Positions 25,601 to 64,000 of a DNA stretch of 64,000 nucleotides are shown here, one piece after another. Source of the stretch: Folioceros fuciformis (lineage: Eukaryota); NCBI GenBank assembly GCA_049999805.1, contig JBNGIO010006279.1, positions 280,485 through 344,484 on the forward strand, given 5' to 3'. The notes under the pieces are model-generated. The model saw nothing but the letters and a program-made list of their open reading frames with translations. It was not told the origin of the DNA and ran no database searches. The position numbers and the translations under genes were made by a program. How positions within the stretch are numbered: the first letter of the stretch is position 1; the number at the start of each line of letters is the position of its first letter.

Positions 25601-27126
25601 TCAATGCCATAGTGGTGCTGACTCATGCTGCATCTGCACCTCCAGATGGTCCCAATGGCCTTCCACTGAGCTACGAGATGTTCGTTGCTCAAAGGTCACA
25701 TGTGGTTCAACATACCATTCGGCAGGCTGCCGGGGACATGCGGCTGATGAATCCTGTCTCACTTGTGGAGAATCACCTAGCTTGCAGGACGAACCGAACT
25801 GGGCAAAGGGTGCTACCGAATGGTCAGATTTGGAAACCACAATTGCTTCTTCTATGTTTTGCCTCCAAGATTCTTGCAGAAGCGAACTCTCTCCTGAAAT
25901 TACAGGATAATACGCAAGGGCGTCCTTTTGGCACTCGACAGAGGGTGCCTCCTCTGCCCTTCCTCTTATCGTCTCTGTTGCAGTCTCGGCAGCAGTTGAA
26001 GCTGATGGATGATCAGGGTGGCGATGAGGACGAATCAGATGAGGATCTTGACGACGAGGAGGAGTCCGAAGATGAGGCCGAGTACGATCAGCTTCCTCCG
26101 TTCAGGCGCCTTTCCAGAGAAGAAGTGATGGATTTAGATGAGCAGCAGAGGAAGGAATACTTTCAGGAGCTGGCAGACAGGGAGAGGCTTTTTCAGAAAA
26201 AGCACTGGAGGGAAGAGCTGAGGAGGAGGAAGGAATCGAAGAAGAGGATGGCAGCGGCATCTAAGGAACAGCTTGCAGACGAAGCCGCTGAAGAAGAGAG
26301 TGCTAGGGCGGCGGCTGTGCCTGTTCCTCTTCCTGACATGGTCTTACCTCCGTCCTTTGACTCCGACTCTCCTACACACAGGTACAGGTACTTGGAGACA
26401 GCCAATCAGTGGTTGGTTAGGCCTGTTTTGGAGACTCATGGCTGGGACCATGATAGCGGCTACGATGGTTTTAGTGTGGAGAAAGGTTTTGTAGTGAAGA
26501 ACAAGATACCTGCTCAAATCTCTGGTCAAATTACCAAGGACAAGAAGGAAGCCAATCTTACAATGGAATGTGCAGCCTCTTTCAAACATGGTGAGGGTAA
26601 GGTCACGCTCTCAGGGCTGGATGTGCAAACAATTGGCAAAGATCTCGCTTACACTCTTCGGAGCGAGACGAGGTTTAGCAACTTCAAGCAAAACAAAACC
26701 ACTGCAGGAGTGGCGTTGACGTTACTCGGGGATGCCATCGCAGCTGGCTTGAAACTGGAGAACAGACTGCTCGTGGGCAAAAGGCTTAAAGTCGTTGTCA
26801 ATGGGGGCGCCTTGACAGGCAGGGGGGACATGGCATATGGAGGAAGTTTGGAGGCAACCCTACGGGATGAGGATTATCCCTTCAGCCGAACGCTCTCTAC
26901 GCTGGGTCTTTCGATCATGAACTGGCATGGGGATCTGGCCATTGGTGGCAATCTGCAGTCACAGTTTCTGGTCGGAAAGACCATGGTTAGTGCTCGAGCC
27001 AATCTGAACAACAGAGGTGCTGGGCAAATCAGTATCCGAGCTAGCAGTGCGGAGCAGCTTCAGATGGCGTTGATAGGCGTCATTCCCATTTTGCGGTCAC
27101 TCTGGGCGCACACACGCTCCTCTTGA
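22621..27126 (+). CDS. TOC159-family: Chloroplast import receptor, Toc159/132/120 family (acidic A domain, AIG1-type G domain, M domain)
   Basis: [69 protein letters not shown] and a long acidic N-terminus in one exon. First ATG is 22621; the frame is open further upstream. Confidence 0.95.
24049..24246 (+). repeat. 24 bp coding repeat (KPEAEPES-like, ~8 copies) in the Toc A domain
   Basis: aagcctgaagccgag recurs with 24 bp period. Confidence 0.85.
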
Positions 27127-32480: not shown

Positions 32481-33363
32481 GACTGGGAGCAATGTGCCCA
32501 ATACATGAACGTGGGATTTAAGGGGGAAGGAATAATTCAACTGGGAGAGCTACTATAACTAGAGTTGTTGAGCTACCTTACTTGTGGAGGTTAATATATT
32601 AAATTAATAATAAATAATTAATCAATTATTATATATTTTATATTATATCTTATTTTTAATTTTAGGTGGATGGATTCATTTGATTTGCTTTCATAGGGAA
32701 GCTGACCTCCTCCTTTCCTTGTGCACGTCCTTCCCCTCTTCTCGCAAGAAGCTCATGTTAAGGTCCATGTCTAAAAAATTTCATCCTATAAATTGAATTA
32801 AAAATATTTTTAAATCTAAATAAATAATCTGATTTGATGTAAATGAATGTTTTAGAAATGATAGCGTGTACCTAATGTACCCGGAAAAACAAAACTCTGC
32901 CGATTCTTGAGGGAGAAGAAGCATAGGAACGGAGACCAAACAATTAAAAAACATTAAAGTGTAAATTAAATTAAATTGTACGTAACTGCTGTATGCGAAG
33001 CTTGTTGAGTGGTGGAAGCAAAGATCCTTTACCTCTGCTGTCCCTGGGATACTCGTGTCGCAAACATGCTGTCATTGCCAAATCGATGGGCCGCATTCCG
33101 TGATCGGCAGCCAGGTTGGGGCCAGTGTGAGGACCAGGGCTATGAAGGTGCTTGTCCAGCTGAGCCTGCGGACATCAGGTATCTGACGCAGGGAAGAAGG
33201 CCAGCGTCTGGGCTGCGCGCCACAGATTTCTTGAATCTGGCCTGAATTTTGCAGGATTAGGTCATCGCATTGTGGAGAATCGGTAGGGAAGGGAGCAAGG
33301 CGCAGGCGGGAGCAGGCGCCAGGCGGAGGCTCTTTTAGGTTTGCCGGCTCATGATTGTCGGCA

Positions 33364-35736
33364 ATGGCATTCAGGGGGCTAGGATCGCAGTCCTGTAGAC
33401 GGATTATCAGACGGCCTCGTCAATCCTTCTCCTCCTGCCACTCAGATGTGTTTGCTTTCACCGGATCCGTTCCAGGTGCAGCCGAGGAGGCTGCTGCCGT
33501 GTCGGGTTCCCACGTGCTGGAATCGGTGTTTCAGCGCACACTCTCGCGGCGGGTCATTTGGGGGTCGCATTGCGGATCTGCATTGTCTGACGGCGGGTCC
33601 AGGGAGAAGCACAGCCAGGTGGAGGAGGATGCGGCTGGTAAGTTCGTGAGGAACTTGGACAGGGGATTTGGTTTTGCGGGAGAAGGGTATGGAGCCTGTA
33701 GGAGCTTCCCTGTTGCGGAGGGGTTGGGATCTGCCAGGTTCGGTGGGAACATGAGGTGGTTTTCGTCTCCGACAAGAGTGTATGATCAAGCCCTCCAAAC
33801 GGCGGTCTCGCATGCCACTGCAGCAGGCTATAAAGATGAGGAGGAAAAGGATGTGCCTAAAGTTCGGAAGGCAGAGGCGTCAGCTGAAGAGTGTGACCAA
33901 GCCGTGGTCGGGCTCACTTCTGCATCTGCCAAGGCCAAAATGAAGCAATCTCAGGAGCCTCCTAAGAAGACCGACACTGGATTTGCGCGGAAGTTCTGGA
34001 ACATGATTCTTGGGATCGGCCCTGCGCTGAGAGCAGTCGCGTCCATGAGCAGACAGGACTGGGCGATCAAAATCTCGGGGTGGAGGAAAGCTTTCTGGGC
34101 GGAAATGCAGCATTACTGGGTGGGAACCAAGCTGCTTTGGGCGGATGTGAGGATTTGCGTGCGCCTTCTTTCAAAGTTGGCTGCCGGGAAGAGCCTCTCC
34201 CGCCGAGAGAGGCAGCAGCTAACCCGTACCACGGCAGACATCTTTCGGCTCGTGCCTTTTGCTGTTTTTATTATTGTCCCGTTTATGGAGCTTTTACTTC
34301 CCGTGTTTCTGAAATTGTTTCCAAATATGCTGCCATCGACATTCCAAGACAAGATGAAGGAGCAGGAGGAACTGAAGAAGAGGCTGAATGCCAGGATACA
34401 GTATGCCAAGTTCCTGCAAGAGACTGTAGGGGAAATGGCAAAGGAGCTGAAAACGTCAAGAACTGGGGACCTGCAAAGGTCTGCCAAGGACTTGGATGAG
34501 TTCATGAGCAAAGTAAGGAAGGGAGTTGACGTGAAGAATGAAGAGATTTTAGGTTTCGCCAAGTTGTTCAATGATGAACTGACGTTGGACAACATCAGCA
34601 GGCCTCGACTTGTGAGCATGTGCAAGTACATGGGCATACAACCTTATGGAACGGATGCTTACCTTCGCTTCAGTCTGCGCACTAAGCTTTCCGGGATCAA
34701 GGCAGATGACAGAATGATTCAGCAGGAAGGGGTGGAGTCGCTGTCAGAGTCAGAACTTAGGGCTGCCTGCAGGGACAGAGGAATGCTGGGCCTGGTTTCT
34801 GTTTCTGAGATGCGACAACAGCTACGAGACTGGCTGGACCTATCTTTGAATCACTCTGTTCCTTCATCTCTACTCATTCTCTCAAGGTCCTTCGTAGTTA
34901 CAGGAAGGATAAGCCGTGAGGATGCCATTGAAGCAGCACTGTCCTCTCTCCCTGAGGAGGTGGTTGGCTCCGTGCAAGCCACGGTTCCCAGTGAGGATGC
35001 TTTGGCTGATGCCAAGCGCAAGCTGGAATTATTGCATGAACAAGAGAAGCTCATCAAAGAAGAGGCGGCAAAGGAGTTAGAGCAGCAGAAGCACCTGAAA
35101 CCAGAGGTCAGTGAGCGTCTGCGGCAAGAGGTTGATGTCACGAGTGCAAAGGATGCTCGGGAAAAGGCGAAGCTTAAAGCTGAAGAGAAGCAGGAGCAGT
35201 TGTGCAAGATCAGTAGTGCCCTTGCTGTACTGGCTTCGGCATCCTCTGTGAGCAAGGAGCGTGCAGACTTCTTGAACCTGGTCAACAAAGAGATTCAGCT
35301 GTACAACAGCATGGTGGAGAAGGAAGGTACGAAAGATGAGGAGGATGCTCGGAGAGCTTATCATGCTGCCAGAGAGGACAGTGACCATGCAGCTGAAGTT
35401 GCATCTGGCTCCAAGGTGTCGGCTGCCCTTGTTAGTCGAATTGATGCTATGCTTCACAAACTAGAGAAGGACTTGGACGAAGTTGATGCCAAGATCGGCG
35501 ATCGGTGGCGAATACTTGATAGGGATTCTGACGGGAAGGTGACTCCAGAAGAAGTTGCAACAGCTGCCATGTTTTTGAAGGACACCCTGGGTCAGGAGCC
35601 AGTACAAGAGCTTATCAGCAATCTGGCCAAAGATCCGGAGGGTAAGATCCTGGTCGAGGACATCGTGAAGCTGGGTGCTGCTGCGGATTTGAAGGACGTG
35701 GCCGAAGATGAAAAGCTGCGGCACCACTTCTCGTAG
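33364..35736 (+). CDS. LETM1: Mitochondrial LETM1 cation/H+ exchanger with EF-hand; intronless CDS
   Basis: HYWVGTKLLWADVRI, RTTADIFRLVPFAVFIIVPFMELLLPVFLKLFPNMLPSTF, FNDELTLDNISRPRL and EF-hand DRDSDGKVTPEE. Confidence 0.95.
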   Translation: MAFRGLGSQSCRRIIRRPRQSFSSCHSDVFAFTGSVPGAAEEAAAVSGSHVLESVFQRTLSRRVIWGSHCGSALSDGGSREKHSQVEEDAAGKFVRNLDRGFGFAGEGYGACRSFPVAEGLGSARFGGNMRWFSSPTRVYDQALQTAVSHATAAGYKDEEEKDVPKVRKAEASAEECDQAVVGLTSASAKAKMKQSQEPPKKTDTGFARKFWNMILGIGPALRAVASMSRQDWAIKISGWRKAFWAEMQHYWVGTKLLWADVRICVRLLSKLAAGKSLSRRERQQLTRTTADIFRLVPFAVFIIVPFMELLLPVFLKLFPNMLPSTFQDKMKEQEELKKRLNARIQYAKFLQETVGEMAKELKTSRTGDLQRSAKDLDEFMSKVRKGVDVKNEEILGFAKLFNDELTLDNISRPRLVSMCKYMGIQPYGTDAYLRFSLRTKLSGIKADDRMIQQEGVESLSESELRAACRDRGMLGLVSVSEMRQQLRDWLDLSLNHSVPSSLLILSRSFVVTGRISREDAIEAALSSLPEEVVGSVQATVPSEDALADAKRKLELLHEQEKLIKEEAAKELEQQKHLKPEVSERLRQEVDVTSAKDAREKAKLKAEEKQEQLCKISSALAVLASASSVSKERADFLNLVNKEIQLYNSMVEKEGTKDEEDARRAYHAAREDSDHAAEVASGSKVSAALVSRIDAMLHKLEKDLDEVDAKIGDRWRILDRDSDGKVTPEEVATAAMFLKDTLGQEPVQELISNLAKDPEGKILVEDIVKLGAAADLKDVAEDEKLRHHFS

Positions 35737-40547: not shown

Positions 40548-43500
40548 ATGGCTGGCCTGAAGGACCCCTTACTGCCACCAGGGGATGGAGATTCTGAAGC
40601 GAGGAATCCCGATGCTGGCATCAATCCTGCAATTCAACGACCTGTCGCTGTGGATTTTCTGTTCTTGAAGCGGGTTTGGAGGTTGATGGTCATTGCCAGG
40701 GCAGGATGGGCATTTGTGCTTGTGATTCTATCAATTCTCAGCGTGGTAGTTGTGTCCAGAGCCGGTCTGGTCATTGGCCACTTTTATCTAGCTCTCATCA
40801 ATAAGGACATGCAGGTAGCGGATCGGGAACGTATCAACGTTTCGTTTGTCCGAGCTATCCATAGTCATTGATGCTAAGTGTTGTGATTTCAGTTGTCTGT
40901 GTTTATCTTACACCTTTTGTGTCCTTGCTGACAGCTTCTATGGGACGCTATTCGACTCTCCTTGTTGTGGTATGGGGCAGAGTCAATATGTAGTGCAGCA
41001 CAGGTCTGGACAGCTGAGCTCTTAGCTTTACACTGGCGGAAAAACCTTACAGACGCTTGTCACCCTATGTATCTTACAGGTTCCAATCTCTGTGCACTCA
41101 ACAGTCCTGTACAGATTATAGACAATCCGGATGAACGTGTGACACAAGAGTTGTATAATTTCTCTCAAGCCCTTGCACAGTTGATGTTGGAAACAATTGC
41201 TGCACCACTTATGATAGTATACTACACATGGTGGGTATGGAAATATGTGGGCTGGTATGGTCCCGTTACTGTATACTTTTTCTTTGTAGTGGGTGCGACA
41301 GTTACCAGGTGGATCATCTCTCCAATTGCAGGCCTCGTTGCAAGACAAGAAAAATTGGAAGCGTTTTTCAGAATCTCCCACGTCCGGTAAGACAAAAAGT
41401 CTCTTCTTAGAGCTTGTCTTGGTGGACCATGGCCTTGACCTTGATTTTTATCTTCAGCATTCTTGTCCACCGGCAGTTCTAATGGTGTCTGTACTTTCCA
41501 TGGTGACATGGATCATGCAGAATACGAGGAAATGCAGAAAGTATTGCTCTTAATGAGAGTGGAGCACTAGAGCAGACTGAGCTGGATAGAAAGTTTGGAG
41601 CTGTCCTGCAGAACCAGAGAAAGCTGGTTACAAGACACTGTTGTTTAGATTTTGTAACGAAGGCTTACAGTTATCTAGGTGAGCACTTTGTTCGCTGAAT
41701 TGAGCTTCTTTAAAACACTGGGCCTCTGTTTGGGGAGTTGCGGGTGGTTTACAGTCTCGTGCGCACCTGGGTTTTTGCAGGTAGCATTTTAAATTATTGT
41801 GTGGTGGGACTTGCGGTCTTCGGGGGCCGTTATGATCAGGGATCAAGTGGGGATGTAGCAAACATGATCAGCAACGCATCCTTCTCTGTCCTGCAACTAA
41901 TTTTCAGGTATCCTTAGTTAAGTCATTTGCGCACCAAATGTTTGCCAACTGTAACAGAATCTGATAAACGAACTCTGCTCTGCAGCTTTACTCAGATTAT
42001 TGAGACTGCCAAAAAGGTTTCTGATCTAGCTGGTTACACAGTCCGAGTTGCAGAGTTGTTTGAAGCACTGGACCTCCTTCCTGCTGTCTCTGATGCTTTT
42101 CCAAATACTACTTCACTCAGCCCCAAGAAGCATCGGGCTGCAGAAATCAAGGACGACTCTGCAAGCGGAGGACCAGCCTCTGTACTTGGTCTGTCGGAGG
42201 ATTCTGTAGAACCGGATCTTACTGAGTTTCTGGCAATTCCACCGACACATTTTCATCTCCGGGTCAGCAGGGTGCTTGAGTATTCTGTCCACTTCACTCC
42301 TGTGGAGATTCGGCCCATGCTAGCTCATGTATTCCCTGAGGTAGACCCGAGGGCGATTTTGGTTATCACCACCTTCCAACCGGCAGCAATCAACCTTTGG
42401 CCTGCTGCCTGCTGTCTGTATGAGGACGGTTCAACGTCACGCAATTTGGAGGAGACTGTTCTGGAGATGGAGGTACGGGAGGAGATCAGCACCTTGGCCA
42501 ACCTGTTTCTAGCCTGGCAGCAAGAAGTGACTGACAGACTGAAAAGTGTAGGACACTGGGCAGCTGCCGCACATCCATTGACTGGGCTTCCCGTTGGCAC
42601 CTCTAGTCAACGTGGGCCTTTAGAAGCTCCTTCATCCACCTCTCCGTCATCTGCAGAATCAACTGTATTGGAAGTGTCAGATGGTCCAAAGTTCAGACAG
42701 GTGGATGCTGCTCGTGTCCTTTTTGGCTACGCATCCATAGAAGTTGGTTGCGGTAACGTCCTAGTCCATCCGAAGTACTTCACTCACTGTTTTCCAGCCT
42801 CTTTGTTCACAACTGCCCCCTTGGGGGCACTGCTCTCAGCAATGCAGTCCGTCCAGGAAGTGTACATATCGAAGGCAGGTCCACGGATGGGTGATAACGG
42901 TGCTGGCAGTGTGGAGGCAACTTGGGTGAGTGAGAATGCAGCTGTGCCGGGGGAGGTTGCTGCCCTTATATGTGACAACCTCACTCTCAAGATTCCGCGC
43001 ACCCAACAGCTGGTAGTGCAGTCCCTAAGTCTGAGAGTGAAATGGGGAGAATCCCTTCTAATCACTGGTCGAACTGGCAGTGGCAAGACCAGCTTACTTC
43101 GAGCCATTGGCGGTGTGTGGCCACTGCAATCAGGTGCTGATTGTTGCCTGTTTTGTCTGCACTGTTGGTGCGATGTCCAGTTCTTTAGCATAACCCGGCC
43201 CCTCTTTCTGCTCCGCTGTGGTGCAGGAAGGTTCTGGGTTCCTCCACGGCTCGAGGGGAAGGGTGTGTTGTTCATTCCCCAGACACCATTTCTAGTGAAA
43301 GGAGGCCTTGCAGCTCAGATACGTTACCCTGACCAGGATAATGCTTCAACCGAGGCCTGCGCACATCGACTGCGAGAAGCCTTACAAGCAGTGGGCATGG
43401 TCTACCTGCTCGACAAGGTGACAGAAGACTGGCAGGTTTGTCGGACCCCACCCCTCTCGATGTCATCAGGAATGGATACGAGGGACATTTTTATGGAGGA

Positions 43501-43898
43501 ACAGGAAGGGATTCTAATATCGGCTTGTGTAATGCAGCAAGATATCGATATCGACACCCTCTCACCAGGGGAGATGCAAAGCCTATCGTTGGCACGCGTG
43601 CTTTACCACCGACCACAACTTGCGATCATGGACGAAGCAACAAGCGCTTTGAATGAAGAGGCTGAGGTTAGTGGGGAAGGAAGGCATGAGGTCAGTCGCA
43701 CAGTCTGATCGTTTGCTAGGCAGCGTGAAACTCATCCCCCATCTTGGACTGTTATATCTACAGGATCGAATTTACAAGAAAATCATGGAGATGGGCATCA
43801 CGGTGGTCAGTGTGGCCCACAGACGAAGCCTCTTTCACTACCACACCAACATTCTGCATATTCAAGGCGATGGAGAAGGTAGCTGGGCTTTCAATTGA
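40548..43898 (+). CDS. ABCD4: ABCD4 (CblJ)-like ABC-D half transporter with an inserted MMADHC (CblD)-like domain
   Basis: TMD: DNPDERVTQE, GWYGPVTVYFFFVVG...QEKLE, RIRGNAESIA, FTQII...SDLAGYTVRV. NBD: LLITGRTGSGKTSLLR, LSPGEMQSLSLAR (LSPGE signature typical of ABCD4), IMDEATSAL, SVAHRRSL. The insert at about 42270-42820 matches the MMADHC pattern. Confidence 0.88.
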
Positions 43899-54200: not shown

Positions 54201-57200
54201 AAGTTACTGACATTGCTGTGGATGCCTTCTTCATTCTTACATGAAGATGGAGAAGAAGCATATTGAGGAAGAAAAAAGGGCAAAAGAGGAGGACATTGAA
54301 AGACTTATGAAAGAGCGAGAGGAGAAGCAGATGCATGTTGATGTCCTGAGAAACGAACTGGAGGTGATTAAACGCGCAGATCAAGAACAACAGCTTCAAC
54401 TGCAACTTCATAAGAGGGAGTTGGAAATGGAGTCAAGAGTCAGGATAAGGAATGTGGAAAACCAGCTACTTGAATCACAGATGAAAGCTAAGGCAATGGA
54501 AGCCAACTATGTTAATGAGATCAGAGGTTTGCGGAAAAAGCATAGAGACTTTGAAGGGGCTATGTGGCTTCAGGGTGAGACTGTCCAGGTATGTTGTGCC
54601 TTGTGGCGAGGAGCATATTGCTCGAGACGGTAATTATGATGGTAGTGTAGATCATCTGAAACAAGACCAGTTCCAATCCAACTGGCACGGGCAGTCTCAG
54701 TGTTCAGAGTTTGCCCGCTCTTGTTGATGTTGCAGGAATTGAAGGCAGCCTCTGAAAGAACACGATCAGAAGTCGTTAACATGCAGCATTCTTGGAATTT
54801 GGAGATTGAATCTCTAGGTTGGCACTTGCTTTTGGCCCCTTGTCACAGTAGTCCNNNNNNNNNNNNNNNNNNNNNNNNNNNNNNNNNNNNNNNNNNNNNN
54901 NNNNNNNNNNNNNNNNNNNNNNNNNNNNNNNNNNNNNNNNNNNNNNNNNNNNNNCAGTAGTCCTGCTTGACTCTGTACTTGGTTGGTCTTGAAGTTTTTC
55001 TGCCAACACTTTTCTTCTGCAATTCCTTGCTCTGTAGGGACGGAAATGCTGAAGATGGCTGAAGCTGCCTCAGGCTATCACAAGGTTCTTGAAGAAAATC
55101 GCCAACTGTATAATGAAGTACAAGATCTGAAGGGTAATTGTAATGTCATTTGCGGATAATGCAAGGGCGTAGGTCTTCAATGGGTTCTTGCTGTGGTTGT
55201 TCAAGCTTACGATACCACAAGCTTGGCCCCAATTTTCCTGCAGGAAATATCAGGGTCTACTGCCGTGTAAGACCTTTCCTTCCCAGCCAATCTGCCCGAC
55301 AAAGCACGGTTGACTTTGTAGGCGAGAACGGTGATCTAGTGATTGTGAATCCCAGCAAGCAGGGCAAGGATGCCCGAAAAGTATTCAGCTTTAACAAGGT
55401 CTTTGACACCTCAGCTTCTCAAGGCGAGTACCACTTGTGCAGCCAATATGTCATTCATTAGCCCCATGTCTAATTCAGGAATTCGAGAGATGAGTCACTC
55501 AGATGTCTCATTACCAGTATGTCTGCCTTGAACAGAGCAAGTATTCCTGGACACTCAACCTTTGATCCGGTCTGTTCTTGATGGCTTCAATGTTTGCATT
55601 TTTGCTTACGGGCAGACTGGCTCTGGGAAAACCCACACCATGGTGAGTAAAGTTCTCCTTATATTATCCAAGTCTTCTGCTTGACCCTGTGAAATGTAGT
55701 AGTTGTTTCCTCAAACGCTTTCATCTGTGTGAACCTGTGTAGAGTGGCCCAACTGGTGGCTCCGAGGAAGACTGGGGGGTCAACTATCGAGCTTTGAATG
55801 ATCTTTTCAACATATCTCAATCACGGACGAATTGCATACAGTATGAGGTGGGAGTGCAAATGATAGAGATCTATAATGAACAAGTTCGTGACCTCCTAGT
55901 CTCGGATGGGTCATCGAAGAGATATCCTTCCTGACTTGTGATAGCTGTGATTTCGTTATGTATACATGCTTGTGTAGTGAACCCAATCCACCTGATCTCC
56001 CACCTTAACAGTTATACGCTTGAGATACGAAATAACTCCCAGCAGAATGGCCTAAATGTCCCAGATGCCAGTATGATGTCAGTGACCTCCACTGGTGATG
56101 TACTAGACCTAATGAAGATTGGCCAGAAGAACAGGGCTGTTGGAGCAACTGCCCTGAATGAACGGAGCAGCCGCTCTCACAGGTGTGTTTCCTGTGGTTT
56201 CCTTCTGATGTGCTTAACCGATTTGTTTAAAACGGGTTCTAACCCTTGAGGAGAATCCAGTGTGTTGACTGTCCATGTCCAGGGCACAGATCTGAAGTCA
56301 GGTGCCATTCTGCGTGGTTGCTTACACCTCGTTGACCTTGCGGGAAGTGAGCGCGTTGACAAGTCTGAGGCCACTGGAGAGAGATTGAAGGAGGCTCAGC
56401 ATATCAACAAGTCTCTGTCAGCTTTAGGAGACGTGATTTCTGCCTTAGCACAAAAGAATGCGCATGTCCCCTACCGCAATAGCAAGCTTACTCAGCTGTT
56501 GCAAGACTCTCTAGGTTCTCATATTTGCTCTTACTTGCCTGTCACTTGGCTTTGAAAAGGCTATGAGGAAACCAATGCAGCACTAACGTATTTGGGTGGT
56601 TTCAGGAGGTCAAGCGAAGACACTGATGTTTGTACATATAAGCCCCGATTTTGATTCTTATGGGGAGACTATCAGTACTCTGAAGTTCGCAGAGAGAGTA
56701 GCAACAGTAGAGCTCGGTGCTGCACGCTCACATAAGGAGAGTGGTGATCTTCGGGACCTTAGAGATCAGGTATGCCAAACCTGTTGGAGTAGCTTCATGA
56801 GTGCATGTAACACCTCCAGGCAATCCTCGTCCGTTTGTCTTCCTAACAGGGAGAACCCTACAGATCTCATCTCTGAAGGACCTGCTGACGAAGAAAGATG
56901 TCGAGATAGACCGATTAACAAAGGAGATTAAGGCACACGAGGCAGAACGGTTAATGAGGGAGGCCAAGGCACATGGTGCCGAAAGTGGTGGTGCCAATTT
57001 GCAGCAACCAGTTCTGAAACCAAAGATTGCAAGTTCGCCATTTACTTCTCGCAGGGTTAGTACAAGTGGTGAAATTCCTAGAATGAGAAAGCCGAGCAGC
57101 GAGTCTTCAATCGTCTCCGAGGTACGAAATACTTCTATTCGCTGGAAAAAAACCAAACATGCATTTCTAATCAGTGCCCTTAGCAATAGTTAAACGAAGT

Positions 57201-58607
57201 GTAGAGTTGGCTATAGCTATGCGCTTTTTGGTATGTGGTTTGAACCAAGCAAGTGCTGGCATTGTGCATTGCAGGGCCAGCAATCAGTTCGTATTTCACA
57301 TGAACGTTTGCCAAAGCAACGTCCATCTTTGGTGATAGCGGTTAGTCAGGATGGCTCATCAGAAGATCACGAGGCTGAATCCCCATTGGATTCTCCTCCA
57401 GGTCAGAGAATATCATCAGAGGACGGACAGAGTAAACCTTATCATGCTCAACGTCAAGGTACTTCCAACAGGAGTACTTCTCCAGACTCGGATCCTCCAC
57501 CAGCAACTCTGGTAGAGACCAACCACTACAGGACAAGGCCTTCAAGGAATTTGGTTGTGAAGCAGGAATCCAATCCTAAAGACTGGCAGGATAGGATTGA
57601 CAGCAGCACCAACACGTCGGTCCTCGGTACAGCATGTCATGATGAAAGTTCTAATGGTTGGAGCGGCGGGGAGTTACCAAAGCTTGATGGAGATGTGGCA
57701 GGGCTTCCTTCAGCACATTTTGGCGGCAGTCAGCTCCTGGCAGAGAGCTCAGGATCTGGTGTGCAAGAAGAAGCAGAGACCTCTGGCAGGAACCAAAGGC
57801 CTGTGGCACCTGATGACAGGGGTCCTGAACTCCCTGGTAGTCAAGAAACTGAGGTGAACAGGGACCCTTATGCTTCAGTTGATTCACTGTTGAATGATCC
57901 ATTTAGGAATGAGATGCTAGACAGGCGGGAAGCAGAAGGGGACTATAGAAGTGATCTCTCTGAGGGGGAACTGTCACAGGGTACAGACTCCTCATCAGTT
58001 AACTTAACTGATCAGGTCGTGCCTGCCAGACGGGATGAGTCCAACATGAAAAAGCTTCAGCAGGGCGGGGAAAGGCGGTAAGACTTATGACTCAGGCCTG
58101 TAACCCAGAGCTTAGCTGCATGGACTGCGAGAGCTCAGCCGAAGAGGCATTTCTGGTGTCTGAAAGCGTTTCTGGCTATCTCTCTGTGATTCGTGCACAT
58201 GAACAGCGTCAGCTTAGAGTGTGCCATGTAGTGTTCACGAGTTGCTCTTGCCCTGCGCAGACCCCATCTTCAGAGCCAGATCCCCCGACCACCCACGAAA
58301 GACCGTAAGCAGTCTGTAAGCGACCAGCCGCATGTTCGCGCAAGGAGATACTCTATGGCAGGAACAGACCCAAAGCGTTTGCCTTCCGGACTCAACAGAC
58401 TTGGGGCAGATGCTGGTAGGTCCTTCGCACTCGCGGCTTCACCCACCCTTCCGTTGCTGCACTGCATATTCCTACTGCCTGTCTGTTCTGACACTCCCTT
58501 GCCGTTGCGTTGCTGTCATGCCAGGTCCAGCGGATGAAACCAAGCCCGCCCCATCTCGCCACCCTCCTTCATCCACCCAGCACAAATCCTCCAAAAGATG
58601 GCTGTAA
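51258..58607 (+). CDS. KCH: Kinesin-14 with N-terminal calponin-homology domain (KCH), many exons
   Basis: CH domain ([30 protein letters not shown]), coiled coil, and motor motifs [57 protein letters not shown]; ends SSKRWL*. Confidence 0.93.
55922..56017 (+). other. U12-type AT-AC intron in the kinesin motor domain
   Basis: Donor ATATCCTT, branch CCTTAAC at 56003-56009, AC acceptor; splicing restores SSKR/LEIRN in frame. Confidence 0.9.
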
Positions 58608-60090
58608 CCTGCCCATTGTACATACCAGATGTAGTAGCTAGCAATCGAATTCAAGGTATCTCGGATTAGACCCATGTCCAGCAACCAGATGGTAGCGTGT
58701 CTGGAGTTCCGAGTCCAACACCAGTTCTGAATGCTGTACGAGATGCTAGTTTGCAATGTCGCAGACCCTGCGAACGGGAATATTCCAGTGAACGTCTGTA
58801 GGTCCTCCCCCAACTTGACACACCTCGATGTTGTGCTGAAGCACTCCCCTTGCTGGAAAGCAAGTACACTTCTGTGTTGCGTGAGTGTGGCGCTGAGCAT
58901 GGCGCATTGCATTCCAGAAACCGTTATGTTAACCGTTGCTTCTAACTGTAATGAAAGGCGACGTCAGAGGCAAGTACGTGGAAGGATCCTGGACCGACAA
59001 GTTTCCGACATGGTTGCAGGGTAGCAGCACCCGCCAACACATTCGCCGCATACGACCCAGGGAGGCAGGCAAGACTGCCTTTTTCCTCCACGACGCACTT
59101 TTTGTTCCGCTTCGCTCCTCGACCTGTCAGCTTCAGTGCCCCTAGACCTGTCGTCTGCTTGCTGCACGTACCTGCTGCTGCTCATATGTGGCTCACTGGA
59201 ACCTGCAGTCCCAGCTTCTGCGCTCTTGCGTAGCCCGATTGGTGGGACATAGCTGCGCAGAACCCGAAATGCCTGATTGTAAATGCACTTTAGCTGCAGT
59301 GCATGGTACGGGATCCCAGGACAGGAAGGGAGCTCCCTTCCGTGAAATGTAACATTTTCTAGCACAAAGAAATGTGGAATTATCTGGTCGTGCTCCTGTT
59401 GTGTGGCGGCAACGCTGGGCCTGGGCTCCACAAGCAGGCTGAGCTTTCTGTGGAATAAGTATCTATGAATCCAGACACTCCGCGTCGCAGCAACAGCTCT
59501 ACATCCGGTTGCGCCTCACCCGGAGATCTGCGAGTCTGCATGCATGTGGTGTCGGTCGGGGAGAGGCGATGTCCTGTGAGTAGGGTCGCGCTCCTGCAAG
59601 GCTAGGCTTGGGGAGGGGAGACAATCTGTTGGCAGGCAGGCATGGACCTATGCCGTGGCAGTGCTTGAGTCTGCCTTCCATTCCATCATTATTGTCAGTG
59701 TCTGGCACTGTTGACTGTGTGCCCGAACAAGCTTTGTGACAGAAAAACGGAGCACCAACAAGTTACCTCGCATCACCATGCTCAGCGGGCTGCACACTGC
59801 CATGGTCTTCATCCTGCTCTTGCAGCTTCTCTCGCTCTCAGAAGAGTGAAGAAGAAAGGGGTCCACAGTCTGTGGCAGGAGTATCAGCAAATCTCACAGC
59901 CTGGAGATTACTCCCATGTCGAGCTGATAAGACTGGGCCTAAATTTATTGAAGTTCTCCTCTGCGACGGTGGGACTTATTGTGATGTACTCAGTAACCCA
60001 GTCTAGGCGCTGGGTTCTCAGATTCTCCTGATCGTGTTTGTGGGTTCCAGGTTGCTGTGAGTGGGTGCAGATCGGTTACAGTCCACAACA

Positions 60091-62791
60091 ATGCAGGTGG
60101 TGCGGCGGGCTGTAGAGATGTCCTCGGAGGCTGCAGAGGTGCTAAAAGGCTTGCAGAAGGGGAGCAAGCAGATTCCCTTCACTTGCCTGTACGACCAGAA
60201 AGGATCTATCCTGTATGAGGAGATCACCGAGCTGGAAGAGTATTACCCGTTTCTTGCAGAGGAGGCCTTGCTGGAATCTTACGCTGATCAAATTGTTGAA
60301 CACGTGCCTCCGGGCAGTGTGGTGACGGAGCTGGGTTGTGGGACTGGAAGGAAGACTGCAATGTTGCTGAGAGCGCTGCTATCCCGACATGGAAGGTAGG
60401 CAGGAGGATGTTATGTTACTTGCATGGAAATCTTTGTTAACGAAGGCTGCTCTCTTCTGGGAGTGGCTGCTAACTGTGGGCGGTGTCTTGCAGGTGCACG
60501 TTTGCTGGGGTCGATGTGTCGCGGCCCTTTCTGGAATCGGCAACCAGGAACCTGTTGGCTTGTGTGCCCAGGCTGAAGCAGGGGGATCTGCACATGATGC
60601 AAGCCGATTATCTCGAGGGGTTGCAGCAAGTGAGGAAGAAGTTTCCCCATGAACTACTCACTGTGGTGTGGTTGGGAAGTAGTGTTGGGAATTTGAGCAA
60701 CGAGGGCGCTATTTCGTTCTTCAAAGACGTCACAACATGCGTTGGTCCTCATCACCAATTCTTTCTCTGCGCTGGTGAGTGAACTGTGCTGTTTTCCGGA
60801 ACGCGGCATCATCTGAAATCCACGCAACGGGTCCATCCAAATACTTCATCAACGTGACTCTCTTTTGCCAATCTAGACATGTGGAAAGACGAGTACACTC
60901 TTCATGCTGCGTATCACGATTCCAAGGGTGTTACGGAGAGATTCATCAAGAACGGTATGGCAAATGCCTTGAAGATGATAGGGGCTGATGTGACGGAGGA
61001 GGACGAGGAAAGCTGGGTGTACGAAGTGGAGGTGAACAGACGTCTGCGTCGGGTGGAGATGTATCTGCGTTTCCCGCGTGGAGTGCAGCTTCCGCAGGAC
61101 ATTTCCGTCAGCGGCATCATGTGCAAACGCCAACCCTTTCATGTCCCACATTCTTATCGCAGATTCAACGGTTTTGGACTTGTTTCTCATCTCACCTCCC
61201 TCTTCAAACATTTGTTGCTGCAGGTCAGGAGAAAGAGTGTTGGTGGAAGTCTCGAGGAAGTTCACCATCGCTGATCTGCAGCATCTGGCCACCCAAGCTG
61301 GGTACATCATAAGCGCCTCTTGGCACTCACCCGTGTACGGCAGCCAGATGCTGGTGCCCGCTCAGGAAGCATTTCGCCAGTGCTGGGATGACACTGACCA
61401 CATCTTCCGGGGACTAGACGACTGGCGTGTGAAGCCCATCGATCTCCGCCATCCCTTTTGCTTCTACTAGTGAGTCACACAATGCTTCTGTTCTTCCATC
61501 CACCATGAGTAGTATCAGTTTCGTTGCTGCATTGCGAAGTATCCTGGTTGTGATCCAACACATGCCTTCGTCGTGATGAGCTTACCTGGTCCTCGGGTAT
61601 TGCCCGTGGCCATGTTCCTGCAGTGGACATGTCCATGCCTTTGCCAAGCTCAAGCTCCTGCCCGACGAGGATGCTTCCCAACTGGATATGATGTTCTCCA
61701 GGGGGATCGACCCCAACGTAGGAGACCCCTCCAAGTGCCACTCCCATCCTGACATCCCTCCCGAATGGCCTGCAACAGAGGATATCAAGCAGTACGGGAA
61801 GCAGGTGAGAGAACAGATCCTGCAAGCACTGGCAGGCGGGATGATCAACATGCGGATGGTGAATTTCGGGCTCGAACATGAGCGGATGCACCAAGAAACT
61901 CTGCAGTACATGGTAGCGCAAGAGAGGAAACTTTCCTTCGAGAAGCACTTCGAGAGCAGGAAGCTTGAGCTCGCAAACGGCAGCGCCCACCACTCCAACG
62001 GCCATGCCAAGAAGCAGGCTACAGTGTACATTCCTCCAGGAGTAGTCCACATGGGGAACGACACCAGCGGTGGGCAATTCTGTTGGGACAACGAGTACCC
62101 GCCACACGAGAGCAGGGTGGATCATCCCTTTGTGGTGAGCAGCAGGCCAGTATCCATCTCCGACTTCCGCACCTTCGTGCTCCTGAACGGCTACCAGCAG
62201 ATGCGTTTCTGGAGGGAGGAGGAGTGCAGCTGCTTCCATGGAAAGGGTGTGAAGTGCCCCGCAACATGGTCGCTGCTGGACGGCGACTTCTGGGTCCACT
62301 CTCCGTCTTCGTCGCAGCATTGGAGTGAGGTTGCCAGTGAGCCGGTGTTTGTGAGCCTGGCGGAAGCCATGGCCTACTGCGCCTGGGCCGGGGCCAGGAT
62401 CATGACTCAGGCCGAGTATCACCGCATCCTGGACGTGGTGGACGCGGACTTTGAGCGACAGGAGAGGAAGCGTATGGTGCAGAGGGGTAACGTATATCGC
62501 AGTGATTATGGTAATAACAGCGGGGTGAACGGAGCTGGGGGGGCAAGGATAGAGCAGATTCGTACAGGTGGGTGGGAGTGGACAAGTTCCGTCTTTGAAC
62601 CATTCCCTGGATTCCAGCCGATGGTAGAGTACCCTGAATATTCTGCCGATTTCTTTGATGGTGAGCACTACGTTCTCAAAGGATCTTCCCCAGTGACCCA
62701 TCCTTCCATGTCTAGGGATTCTTTCAACAATTTCTATCAGCGGCTTTATCCTTACGTATTTGCCAAGTTCAGGTGTTGTTTTGATTTGTAG
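60091..62791 (+). CDS. egt1: Ergothioneine biosynthesis protein 1-like fusion (EgtD histidine N-methyltransferase + DinB/FGE-sulfatase EgtB sulfoxide synthase), spliced
   Basis: EgtD motifs: LYDQKGSILYEEITELEEYYP, ELGCGTGRKT, WLGSSVGN, AAYHDSKGVTERF, EVSRKF. EgtB motifs: KPIDLRHPFCFYYGH, RGIDPNVGDPSKCHSH, EHERMHQETLQYM, WDNE, WEWTSS, YPEYSADFFDGEHYVLKGSS. Four introns. Confidence 0.92.
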
Positions 62792-63069
62792 GTGCATCAG
62801 TTTTTGCTACTTCCTCGTCGCATCTCTTTGTTGCACAACTTGTGCAGCTGTGCAGACTATCTACGTGTTTGTAAGAAGCAAATTGAAGTGCATTGCACTT
62901 GTTAATCAAATGGTGTAGTATCCCGAAGGATTCACCGTCAGTTTGTAGCAACCATCACGTCTGTTGCAGTGCATATTCAAAGTCAGAACCGATCCTCCAC
63001 ACGACTGTTCACTTGACCAGTTTCAAATCTGTCAACAACTGGTGGATGCGTGGAGGTAAAGAATCCTTG

Positions 63070-64000
63070 TCAACAATCCGCCTTCCTGAGAACTCTCTCC
63101 AGGAAAGTACCGACCACGTCTGAAGCTTGCTTCTCTAACGTTTCTTGAGTGATCTCTCTTTGCTTCAACACCTGCTTGCCAACTTTGAACGAGTGATCCC
63201 CGCCTTCTACGATGAAGACCTCGTTCAGACCCGTCATGGAGGCTCGGACATGGTCAAGCTTGTCCACAGGACACATGGGGTCCTTGCTTCCCTGGATGAA
63301 CAGGATCGGAAGTGAAAGATCCAGTAATGTCGAGTCCCGGAGAACTCCATTCGCACCCTGCCAACTCCCGGACCTATCAGCGTCTTGCAGAACTTTCGTG
63401 CTGCTCGCATTCAAGGAGCACAGAACTGTACGCAAGCAAAGGCGGAACAACCTTCAGAGGATAACCCAGACACACTACAGCCGCGACACCAGCCTGTTCA
63501 TTAGCCGCAACCATGCAACTCACCCTGTCGTCAAACCAATTCTGCAGCTGAGAATTGTGATTCAAGGAGGATGCGAGGTGCAGAGAAGACCAATATGAAA
63601 TACGAGCACAAAACCTGGAGCCCATGGACTTTCCAACCAGCACCACGGGATGTCCAGGATGCCTAGAAGCAGCCTTCTTTACTTGAGCAAGGTGGAAATC
63701 CACCAGCTTTTCAGCTTTAGGCGGAGCCCCACGCTTACCTCCAGCCAGATCTGCCACAGATGCACGTTGTCAGACACCTCATCCCCCAGCCCTGCCCTCA
63801 CGCATCACTTCCCGTGTGCACATTGAGGTTACATGGGTAATCGAAGGTAACAACCTCCACCGCGTTGGTAGCAGCGTTCAACAGCTCCGACCACCTGCTT
63901 GTAATCAAACATCAGGCACCCGCAGAGAAATATCCCATCGCCCCAGCAAGTCCTGACACTCACCTGATCATCCAGGGCGAGGACGAGGAAGCCCCAGCCC
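63070..64000 (-). CDS. KANSL3/Tex30-like alpha/beta hydrolase (5' partial, runs off the window)
   Basis: AGASSSSPWMIR, VVTFDYP, VVLVGKSMGSR/VSCMVA, CLGYPLK, LFIQGSKDPMC and GGDHSF. Confidence 0.85.

Follow-up and report, generated by a model that had tools for sequence, protein, structure and literature searches.

Ergothioneine has long been held to be a product of fungi and some bacteria that plants take up. A 64,000-nucleotide stretch of DNA from the hornwort Folioceros fuciformis (contig JBNGIO010006279.1, positions 280,485 to 344,484; hereafter the window, in whose own numbering all positions are given) raises the question of whether a plant encodes an ergothioneine synthase of its own, and if so, where such a gene came from. 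A first-pass annotation of the sequence had proposed that the gene at 60091-62791 specifies a fusion of an EgtD-type methyltransferase with an EgtB-type sulfoxide synthase, as in fungal Egt1. According to the analysis described here, this gene is very probably the nuclear EGT1 of a hornwort close to Anthoceros agrestis and encodes one polypeptide of 747 amino acids with two catalytic domains. EGT1 in hornworts is already known in print (Kock, Gutsche, Walter, Zachgo, Plant Biol, April 2026, PMC13358676). Because the accessible part of that work includes a hornwort ortholog, the finding of the gene is a confirmation, not a discovery.

Gene Structure and Transcripts

EGT1 consists of five coding exons on the forward strand with a total of 2244 nucleotides, i.e. 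747 codons plus the stop codon (Table 1). The reading frame starts with the ATG at 60091, ends with the TAG at 62789-62791, and is open throughout. The 5'-untranslated (UTR) part of exon 1 ends at 60090, and an in-frame TGA is located ahead of the ATG at 60058-60060. All four coding introns and one further intron in the 5'UTR are of the GT..AG type.

Transcript evidence came from the public run X1, the kind of which is on record only as "RNA?" and the contigs of which were placed on 59500-63300. X1 contained 0.82 of the sampled words from 60000-62900, and runs X2 and X3 contained next to none of them. No listed run with the words is on record as RNA outright; the X1 contigs are spliced, however, and X1 therefore contains RNA. 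The contigs skip exactly the five introns listed in Table 1 and otherwise exhibit zero base differences from the window in the region on which they were placed. They reveal presence and joints, not strand or expression level. A contig of 1330 nucleotides links the 5'UTR exon with exons 1-3, and a contig of 2050 nucleotides links exon 4 to exon 5 and extends beyond 63300. The latter joint fuses the two enzymes, and its position inside a single contig bears out the expectation that both halves are joined in the transcript. Intron 4 had been predicted at 61470-61623 with the junction PFCFYYGH, and both are exact. For another intron, which had been placed only ambiguously near 61113-61228, the boundaries are 61121-61223 because the X1 contigs skip exactly that stretch.

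In the EGT1 transcript contig, the coding region is preceded by a long leader (59511-60090; about 500 nucleotides), which contains an 82-nucleotide intron of its own. The start of the contig need not be the start of the transcript.

Table 1. Positions of EGT1 and of other features in the window
Feature	Position	Strand	Basis or remark
5'UTR exon	59511-59968	+	1330-nucleotide contig covers 59511-59967 and starts there; true upstream limit may lie further
5'UTR intron, 82 nucleotides, GT..AG	59969-60050	+	contig joint 59967 to 60050 (cut +1)
Exon 1, start of EgtD-type methyltransferase with glycine-rich S-adenosylmethionine (SAM) loop ELGCGTG	60051-60395	+	PF10017, EgtD structures 7scf/4uy6
Intron 1, 98 nucleotides	60396-60493	+	contig joint (cut +2)
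Exon 2, middle of methyltransferase including LGSSVGN substrate loop	60494-60774	+	PF10017
Intron 2, 102 nucleotides	60775-60876	+	contig joint (cut +1)
Exon 3, methyltransferase	60877-61120	+	PF10017
Intron 3, 103 nucleotides	61121-61223	+	joint 61120 to 61224 in 58-nucleotide contig; 161-nucleotide contig retains intron
Exon 4, end of methyltransferase (VEVSRKF), linker, start of DinB-like iron domain up to ..PFCFYY	61224-61469	+	PF10017, family alignment
Intron 4, 154 nucleotides, splits codon preceding first iron-ligand His	61470-61623	+	joint 61469 to 61624 in 2050-nucleotide contig
Exon 5, sulfoxide synthase, stop TAG 62789-62791	61624-62791	+	PF03781, Protein Data Bank matches
TOC159-type chloroplast import receptor, 1543 amino acids, intronless, TOC159_MAD + AIG1	22495-27126		Pfam
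LETM1-like protein with EF-hand pair, intronless long frame	33355-35736		Pfam
Intronless long frame with ABC_tran matches	41918-43708		Pfam
Abhydrolase_11 gene, convergent with EGT1, last exons 63070-63453 and 63377-63769	63070-63769	-	Pfam

Domain Architecture

The family model PF10017 (Methyltransf_33) matched exons 1-4 collinearly (profile positions 3-84, 90-175, 180-246, and 259-293; E = 1.2e-24, 5.2e-12, 2.4e-11, and 6.1e-4, respectively), with the score of exon 4 (19.4 bits) falling below the 23-bit cut-off. Exon 5 matched PF03781 (FGE-sulfatase) with E = 1.3e-26, and the corresponding fold occupies about 62015-62776. Thus, the proposed architecture of fungal Egt1 is present in one open spliced frame. 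The order, with the methyltransferase N-terminal to the FGE-sulfatase-type domain on one polypeptide, is that by which plant EGT1 is defined in print (PMC13358676). EGT1 also aligned collinearly over its full length with 13 fused homologs from 10 streptophytes, one chlorophyte, and two fungi.

Among solved structures, exon 5 matched EgtB-IV best (8vih; 8.3e-26, 94 bits), followed by EgtB-I (4x8b; 8.4e-23, 84 bits) and OvoA (8khq; 5e-22, 82 bits); SenA (69 bits) and EgtB-II (57 bits) were lower. Exons 2, 3, and 4 searched singly against the Protein Data Bank gave no match, and the full-length homolog P0012 was therefore used for alignment to the structures.

The FGE-like domain in exon 5 harbors an insert of about 31 amino acids (window 62430-62530, from DFERQ to NGAG), which is kept in the spliced contig. 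It is not present in 9 other aligned land-plant and zygnematophyte sequences. Closterium and fungi have unrelated long inserts at the same site.

Catalytic Residues and Predicted Reactions

Residues of the methyltransferase were mapped via alignments to EgtD structures (7scf, 4uy6), via P0012, and via the family alignment. In EgtD, histidine or hercynine is bound by Y39, F47, Y56, T163, N166, Y206, T213, E282, and S284 (PMC8593015, accessible part). EGT1 keeps Y39, Y56, N166, Y206, T213, E282, and S284, and the exchanges of F47 for Y and of T163 for S are conservative. Its SAM loop, ELGCGTG, aligned to ELGSGTS of EgtD. G161 and M252, further substrate residues of EgtD, are also kept, so that 9 of 11 substrate residues are identical.

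In the sulfoxide synthase half, exon 5 contains GH with the first His ligand, HERMHQE, the YPEYS tyrosines, and an NFY triplet. The first iron-ligand His lies in FYYGH, and HERMHQE represents the HX3HXE motif and aligned to HQRIH of EgtB-IV. The tyrosines of YPEY aligned to chain positions 378 and 381 (Y378/Y381) of EgtB 4x8b, which are Y377/Y380 in the literature. FYYGH, HERMH, and YPEYS, which the first-pass annotation had described as apparently intact iron ligands and tyrosine region, are all there. The Asn at chain position 415 of 4x8b (N414) is conserved and is followed in EGT1 by F and Y, and the residue aligned with chain R421 (R420) is Y. In the alignment to 4x8b, therefore, D416 and R420 of EgtB-I, which bind gamma-glutamylcysteine, are both replaced by Y. 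C-terminal motif positions were mapped via the 4x8b alignment and the residue numbering of EgtB-I, and front positions were deduced.

Composite motifs have been described for this enzyme family (preprint 10.1101/2024.04.10.588772). In the accessible part of that source, N occupies the 414-aligned position in every hercynine-using class and Y/F occupies it in OvoA, and D plus R at the later positions is restricted to gamma-glutamylcysteine-using EgtB-I. The EgtB-IV motif given there, RxYH--DxHxHYxNWFx, fits EGT1 at R..Y..H, D, H..H, Y, and N, with the front positions mapped as stated above, and differs by W to F and F to Y. The residue pattern of EGT1 thus appears nearest to that of EgtB-IV without being identical (N-F-Y versus N-W-F), and it argues for hercynine and cysteine as substrates.

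In the proposed mechanism, the N-terminal EgtD-type SAM-dependent domain would trimethylate the alpha-amino group of L-histidine, yielding hercynine. The C-terminal DinB-like plus FGE-like domain, a predicted non-heme Fe(II)- and O2-dependent sulfoxide synthase, would link cysteine to C2 of the hercynine imidazole and form hercynylcysteine sulfoxide. Release of ergothioneine would then fall to EGT2, a separate pyridoxal phosphate-dependent C-S lyase with its gene elsewhere. Both chemical steps of EGT1 and cysteine as the sulfur donor are inferred from sequence comparison.

Homologs in Plants and the Published Record

When exon 5 was compared with longer proteins, 3439 candidates received a score, 143 of them at E <= 0.001. 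The best matches were PF10017 + PF03781 fusions from mosses, liverworts, a lycophyte, ferns, and conifers (45-50% identity). Identity was 36-49% to zygnematophyte algae, 34-42% to chlorophytes, and just 27-32% to fungal Egt1. None of the proteins searched matched exon 5 at 100%.

That homologs might already have been noted in non-seed plants had been suspected from the start, and the suspicion is borne out by PMC13358676. In its accessible part, EGT1 and EGT2 are reported as present in all non-flowering plant groups examined. EGT1 is listed for Klebsormidium and all examined Zygnematophyceae, Coleochaetophyceae, and Charophyceae, as well as for all examined bryophytes, lycophytes, ferns, and gymnosperms; it was not found in flowering plants or Chlamydomonas. 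Ergothioneine was measured in sterile cultures of non-flowering plants by high-performance liquid chromatography with mass spectrometry in the multiple reaction monitoring mode (HPLC-MRM/MS), A. agrestis being among the cultured species, and ergothioneine production by non-flowering plants is taken here from that source. Thuja is the sole gene-bearing species named there as being without the compound. Dataset S1 of the same paper includes an EGT1 from A. agrestis (AagrBONN_evm.model.Sc2ySwM_368.642.1) and an A. agrestis EGT2 candidate. The A. agrestis EGT1 resembles the protein studied here in domain order, in length (746 versus 747 amino acids), and in the sequence at the exon 3/4 junction. 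Over the first 400 residues there are about 45 differences, including one indel of one amino acid, which corresponds to about 89% identity (counted by eye, N-terminal 400 residues only). Thus, we deduced that the window stems from a hornwort close to A. agrestis.

A plant-encoded synthase overturns the view that only fungi and bacteria form ergothioneine, and for non-flowering plants this is now published (PMC13358676). As far as its accessible text goes, the paper relies on BLAST and domain calls only, does not address the origin of plant EGT1, and contains the words "horizontal" and "cyanobacteria" zero times. Our literature searches found no further paper on plant EGT1 or its origin. The present work adds an exact EGT1 model, backed by transcript contigs, for a further hornwort, an argument at the level of single residues for hercynine and cysteine as substrates, an initial view of the source of the plant enzyme, and evidence that points to one old fusion that plants share with fungi, with EgtB-IV-like soil enzymes as the nearest bacterial relatives.

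EGT1 is duplicated in several lineages, and this window carries one copy. Copies with neighboring gene numbers are found in Ceratopteris (17G012400/500), Cryptomeria (SUGI_0817810/0817940), and Cycas (002917, 002923-25), and two copies each in Ceratodon, Riccia, and Marchantia. Five metagenome "proteins" with PF03781 only (P0121, P0125, P0129, P0133, and P0136; 350-460 amino acids) fall among mosses in the tree. Each probably represents the long final exon of a moss EGT1 that was called as a bacterial-style open reading frame in a soil or peat metagenome.

Phylogeny and Origin

Trees were calculated for hand-chosen subsets: the C half with 80 rows, unrooted; the C half with 54 rows, rooted; the N half with 55 rows; and both halves joined, with 55 rows and 728 columns. 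The rooted C-half tree was built without the long-branched rotifer sequence P0074, the metagenome rows, and part of other groups. All were quick searches supported only by the Shimodaira-Hasegawa-like approximate likelihood ratio test (SH-aLRT). Many rows were of deviant composition, OvoA and cyanobacterial EgtB-IV were not included, and the groups tested were named after inspection of the trees. Because control genomes gave no EgtB above the cut-off, outgroups were taken from Acidobacteriota-phylum loci. They comprised loci L089-L100, i.e. 12 of the 14 matches above the TIGR03440 cut-off in 61 genomes of that phylum, 27 of which had any match. Two of these 27 genomes, G050 and G025, are unpublished, and their sequences were not used.

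Viridiplantae were recovered with SH-aLRT values of 99 (C half, rooted), 100 (N half), and 100 (joined). Streptophytes received 95 (N half), 99 (joined), and 98 in the unrooted C-half tree, and land plants including the window protein received 99 (N half) and 96 (joined); neither group was recovered in the rooted C-half tree. A phylogeny of each half had been suggested by the first-pass annotation. In both, the green proteins cluster with fungal Egt1, not with bacteria: a clade of 10 fungal, 3 dinoflagellate or chlorarachniophyte, and 18 green proteins stands apart from the bacterial pairs with 90 (C half), 91 (N half), and 95 (joined). The same clade received 97 on a hand-picked 28-row subset under LG+G4. 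Approximately unbiased (AU) tests on 28 rows under LG+G4 rejected a grouping of green proteins and bacteria without fungi (p = 0.0225) and one of fungi and bacteria without green proteins (p = 0.0049).

The relationships of the EGT1 genes roughly track those of the species. As judged from these trees, vertical retention of hornwort EGT1 would fit, not gene transfer or contamination. Of the two origins that had been considered at the outset, retention from algal ancestors is the one supported, the window protein being nested in land plants, streptophytes, and Viridiplantae (SH-aLRT 96-100), and there is no support for a recent transfer into this plant.

Bacterial Relatives of the Two Halves

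Stand-alone bacterial EgtB proteins (P0150-P0240) exhibited 35-40% identity and 225-260 bits against exon 5 and thus outscored fungal Egt1 (about 117-148 bits). For this reason, independent fusions in fungi and plants were considered; the rooted trees and the AU tests argue against them. For their representative P0158, EgtB-IV was the closest solved structure (236 bits). Of 601 pattern matches in one-per-species bacterial genomes, 586 were confirmed. Among these 586 loci, the 80 best are from soil metagenome-assembled genomes of Rokubacteria/Methylomirabilota, Acidobacteriota (Vicinamibacterales, Thermoanaerobaculia), Binatia, Dormiibacterota, and a few others. No cyanobacterial title occurs among the best 80, and a cyanobacterial (plastid) origin of the C half finds no support among them. 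In 70 of 88 loci, EgtB has an EgtD homolog as its neighbor, which in most cases follows EgtB closely in the same orientation, so that the order is opposite to that in the fusion.

We regard the chances as evenly balanced that the EgtD-EgtB fusion arose once, from a synthase on the EgtB-IV-like/OvoA side and a neighboring EgtD of the kind now found in soil Acidobacteriota and Rokubacteria, not in cyanobacteria. The fusion would then be common to fungi, to the green lineage, and to some dinoflagellates and chlorarachniophytes, and the green enzymes with N-F-Y or N-Y-Y (versus N-W-F) would form a distinct class beside the fungal "type III." If this is true, plant EGT1 is an old eukaryotic inheritance that was later lost in flowering plants, and it is neither plastid-derived nor recently transferred.

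Further fusions of these domains were noted. The Acidobacteriota-phylum locus L100 (G040:C2:331087-335346) contains a frame of 799 amino acids with EgtD at residues 49-338 followed by EgtB at 381-798, i.e. in the order of Egt1. Among bacterial sequences it matches the N half of EGT1 best (34%), and it forms a long branch at the base of the ingroup. The fused proteins P0060, P0075, and P0078 carry EgtD after EgtB and cluster with bacteria outside the Egt1 clade. In P0060, P0085, P0088, and P0104 (1137-1286 amino acids), PF10017 and PF03781 are accompanied by an aminotransferase class I/II domain (PF00155), and the EgtD part of P0060 is C-terminal (951-1244). One of these four is from the protist set Nk52, and the others are from seawater or metagenomes. 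They may represent the entire ergothioneine pathway in one chain.

Alternative Explanations

A number of observations weigh against the assignment as EGT1. None of the bacterial equivalog models reached its cut-off. TIGR03438 (EgtD) gave 84.1, 40.9, 31.1, and 19.1 bits on exons 1-4 (cut-off, 290.9), and even the whole green homolog P0012 reached only 202.7 bits with this model. On exon 5, TIGR03440 (EgtB) gave 181 bits (cut-off, 360), and the SenA model NF041186, at 188 bits (cut-off, 420), was slightly above EgtB. On these scores the bacterial EgtD equivalog was rejected as an identity, as was the bacterial EgtB equivalog (EgtB-I/II side), for which the replacement of D416 and R420 by Y counts in addition. 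An experimentally named fungal Egt1 (P0093), however, also stays below the cut-offs of TIGR03438 and TIGR03440 (197.4 and 99.9 bits). The two cut-offs are thus of little use for judging eukaryotic members, and we read the low scores as a reflection of models tuned to bacteria. The triplet N-F-Y at the positions of EgtB-I N414/W415/D416 exactly matches none of the six composite motifs in the accessible part of the preprint (10.1101/2024.04.10.588772). Furthermore, the exon 3/4 joint is carried by a single contig of 58 nucleotides with a shorter side of 28 nucleotides, and a contig of 161 nucleotides (61093-61253) reveals a minor form that retains intron 3. Finally, the presence of ergothioneine in A. 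agrestis is implied by the text of PMC13358676, with Thuja as the only exception.

The retained intron bears on the idea that EGT1 is transcribed but does not work, either as a decaying gene or because the transcript is mainly a frame-shifted form. Retention shifts the frame and leads to a stop at 61272-61274 (open frame 60858-61274), and the lineage-specific insert of about 31 amino acids in the FGE-like domain could likewise speak for decay. We consider this highly unlikely. The 747-codon frame is entirely open, every catalytic residue checked is conserved, and the terminal branch of the window protein is not long (0.40-0.54 versus a median of 0.28-0.46). The spliced contigs are also deeper than the one that retains the intron (word depth 24-32 versus 10), though contig depth is a poor measure. 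An active enzyme with another product, be it 5-histidylcysteine sulfoxide of the ovothiol type or, for the most part, the selenium compound selenoneine, is unlikely, because its fused partner is an EgtD-type N-alpha-methyltransferase with intact histidine-binding residues, unlike the C-terminal methyltransferase of OvoA, and because the protein clusters with fungal Egt1. The structure matches given above do place the C half on the OvoA-like/EgtB-IV-like side, SenA ranks first of the NCBIfam models on exon 5, and N-F-Y agrees with the N(F/Y)(F/Y) segment of the motif described for SenA. The front of that motif (N-E-H .. H-R), however, is unmatched, EGT1 having R..Y..H and D at the positions deduced to correspond, and the Y/F position of OvoA is Asn, as in all hercynine-using classes described in the accessible part of the preprint. 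Ergothioneine is, moreover, the compound reported from plants that carry EGT1 (PMC13358676, accessible part). Identity with OvoA was rejected on its N-terminal model TIGR04344 (145.6 bits on exon 5; cut-off, 400), the N-terminal position of the methyltransferase, and the pair N-F; the score with NF041186 led to rejection of the selenoneine synthase SenA.

A foreign gene, be it contamination from a fungus, alga, or bacterium or a recent transfer from a fungus or bacterium, would be conceivable in view of the microbes with which hornworts live, of the four N gaps that separate the plant-type TOC159 gene from EGT1, and of the origin of the closest stand-alone relatives of the C half (32-40% identity) from soil bacteria. 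The five GT..AG spliceosomal introns, which are removed in RNA-derived contigs, are at odds with this explanation, as is the fact that the best matches over exon 5 are all from streptophytes (45-50%) and those to fungi reach just 27-32%. The protein falls inside land plants with support of 96-99 in the N-half and joined trees, and the A. agrestis genome has an annotated ortholog of about 89% identity (counted by eye). A foreign origin is thus extremely unlikely, and the earlier judgment that the gene is not a contaminant holds on account of both the splicing and the position within land plants. Taken together, these considerations leave a working hornwort EGT1 that would form ergothioneine precursors as the preferred interpretation.

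Genomic Surroundings

The first-pass annotation had described the gene as lying between ordinary plant genes. The window does contain genes for a TOC159-type receptor, a LETM1-like protein, and an Abhydrolase_11 protein (Table 1), and to this extent the description is correct. EGT1 sits in an N-free stretch (54955-64000), and the four N gaps between this stretch and TOC159 qualify it. Several further open frames in the window (250-485 amino acids) had no Pfam match.

The exon 5 contig extends more than 500 nucleotides beyond the stop codon of EGT1, past 63300, into the last exons of the convergent Abhydrolase_11 gene. Either the two genes may overlap at their 3' ends, or two transcripts may have been merged in this contig, which is unstranded.

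Comparison with Known Systems

Fungal Egt1 (SPBC1604.01 of Schizosaccharomyces pombe and the enzymes of Neurospora crassa and Claviceps; "type III EgtB") resembles hornwort EGT1 in the fusion of EgtD followed by EgtB in one polypeptide and has the HX3HXE motif, the tyrosine pair, and the Asn in common with it. It differs in the triplet (N-W-Y versus N-F-Y), in long extra loops, and in the C terminus (..AGARL versus ..AKFRCC in the hornwort). With the EasF-family model TIGR03439 (cut-off, 205.55), the fungal N half scores high enough (388 bits), whereas the green P0012 does not (160.7 bits).

Among stand-alone enzymes, the C half is most closely related to EgtB-IV-like bacterial synthases with an adjacent EgtD (solved structures 8vig and 8vih). 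They have in common with EGT1 the pattern of R..Y..H, D, and HxxxH as well as the C-terminal YPYVFAKFRC. In contrast to the plant fusion, they are encoded by separate genes, mostly egtB then egtD, and contain N-W-F instead of N-F-Y. OvoA, the 5-histidylcysteine sulfoxide synthase (8khq), likewise combines a DinB-like with an FGE-like iron domain, and in the accessible part of the preprint (10.1101/2024.04.10.588772) it falls on the same side of the family split as the C half of EGT1. Unlike EGT1, in which the methyltransferase is N-terminal and of the EgtD type, OvoA has its own C-terminal methyltransferase and acts on C5 of histidine, and the OvoA-specific (Y/F)-A pair is N-F in the hornwort enzyme.

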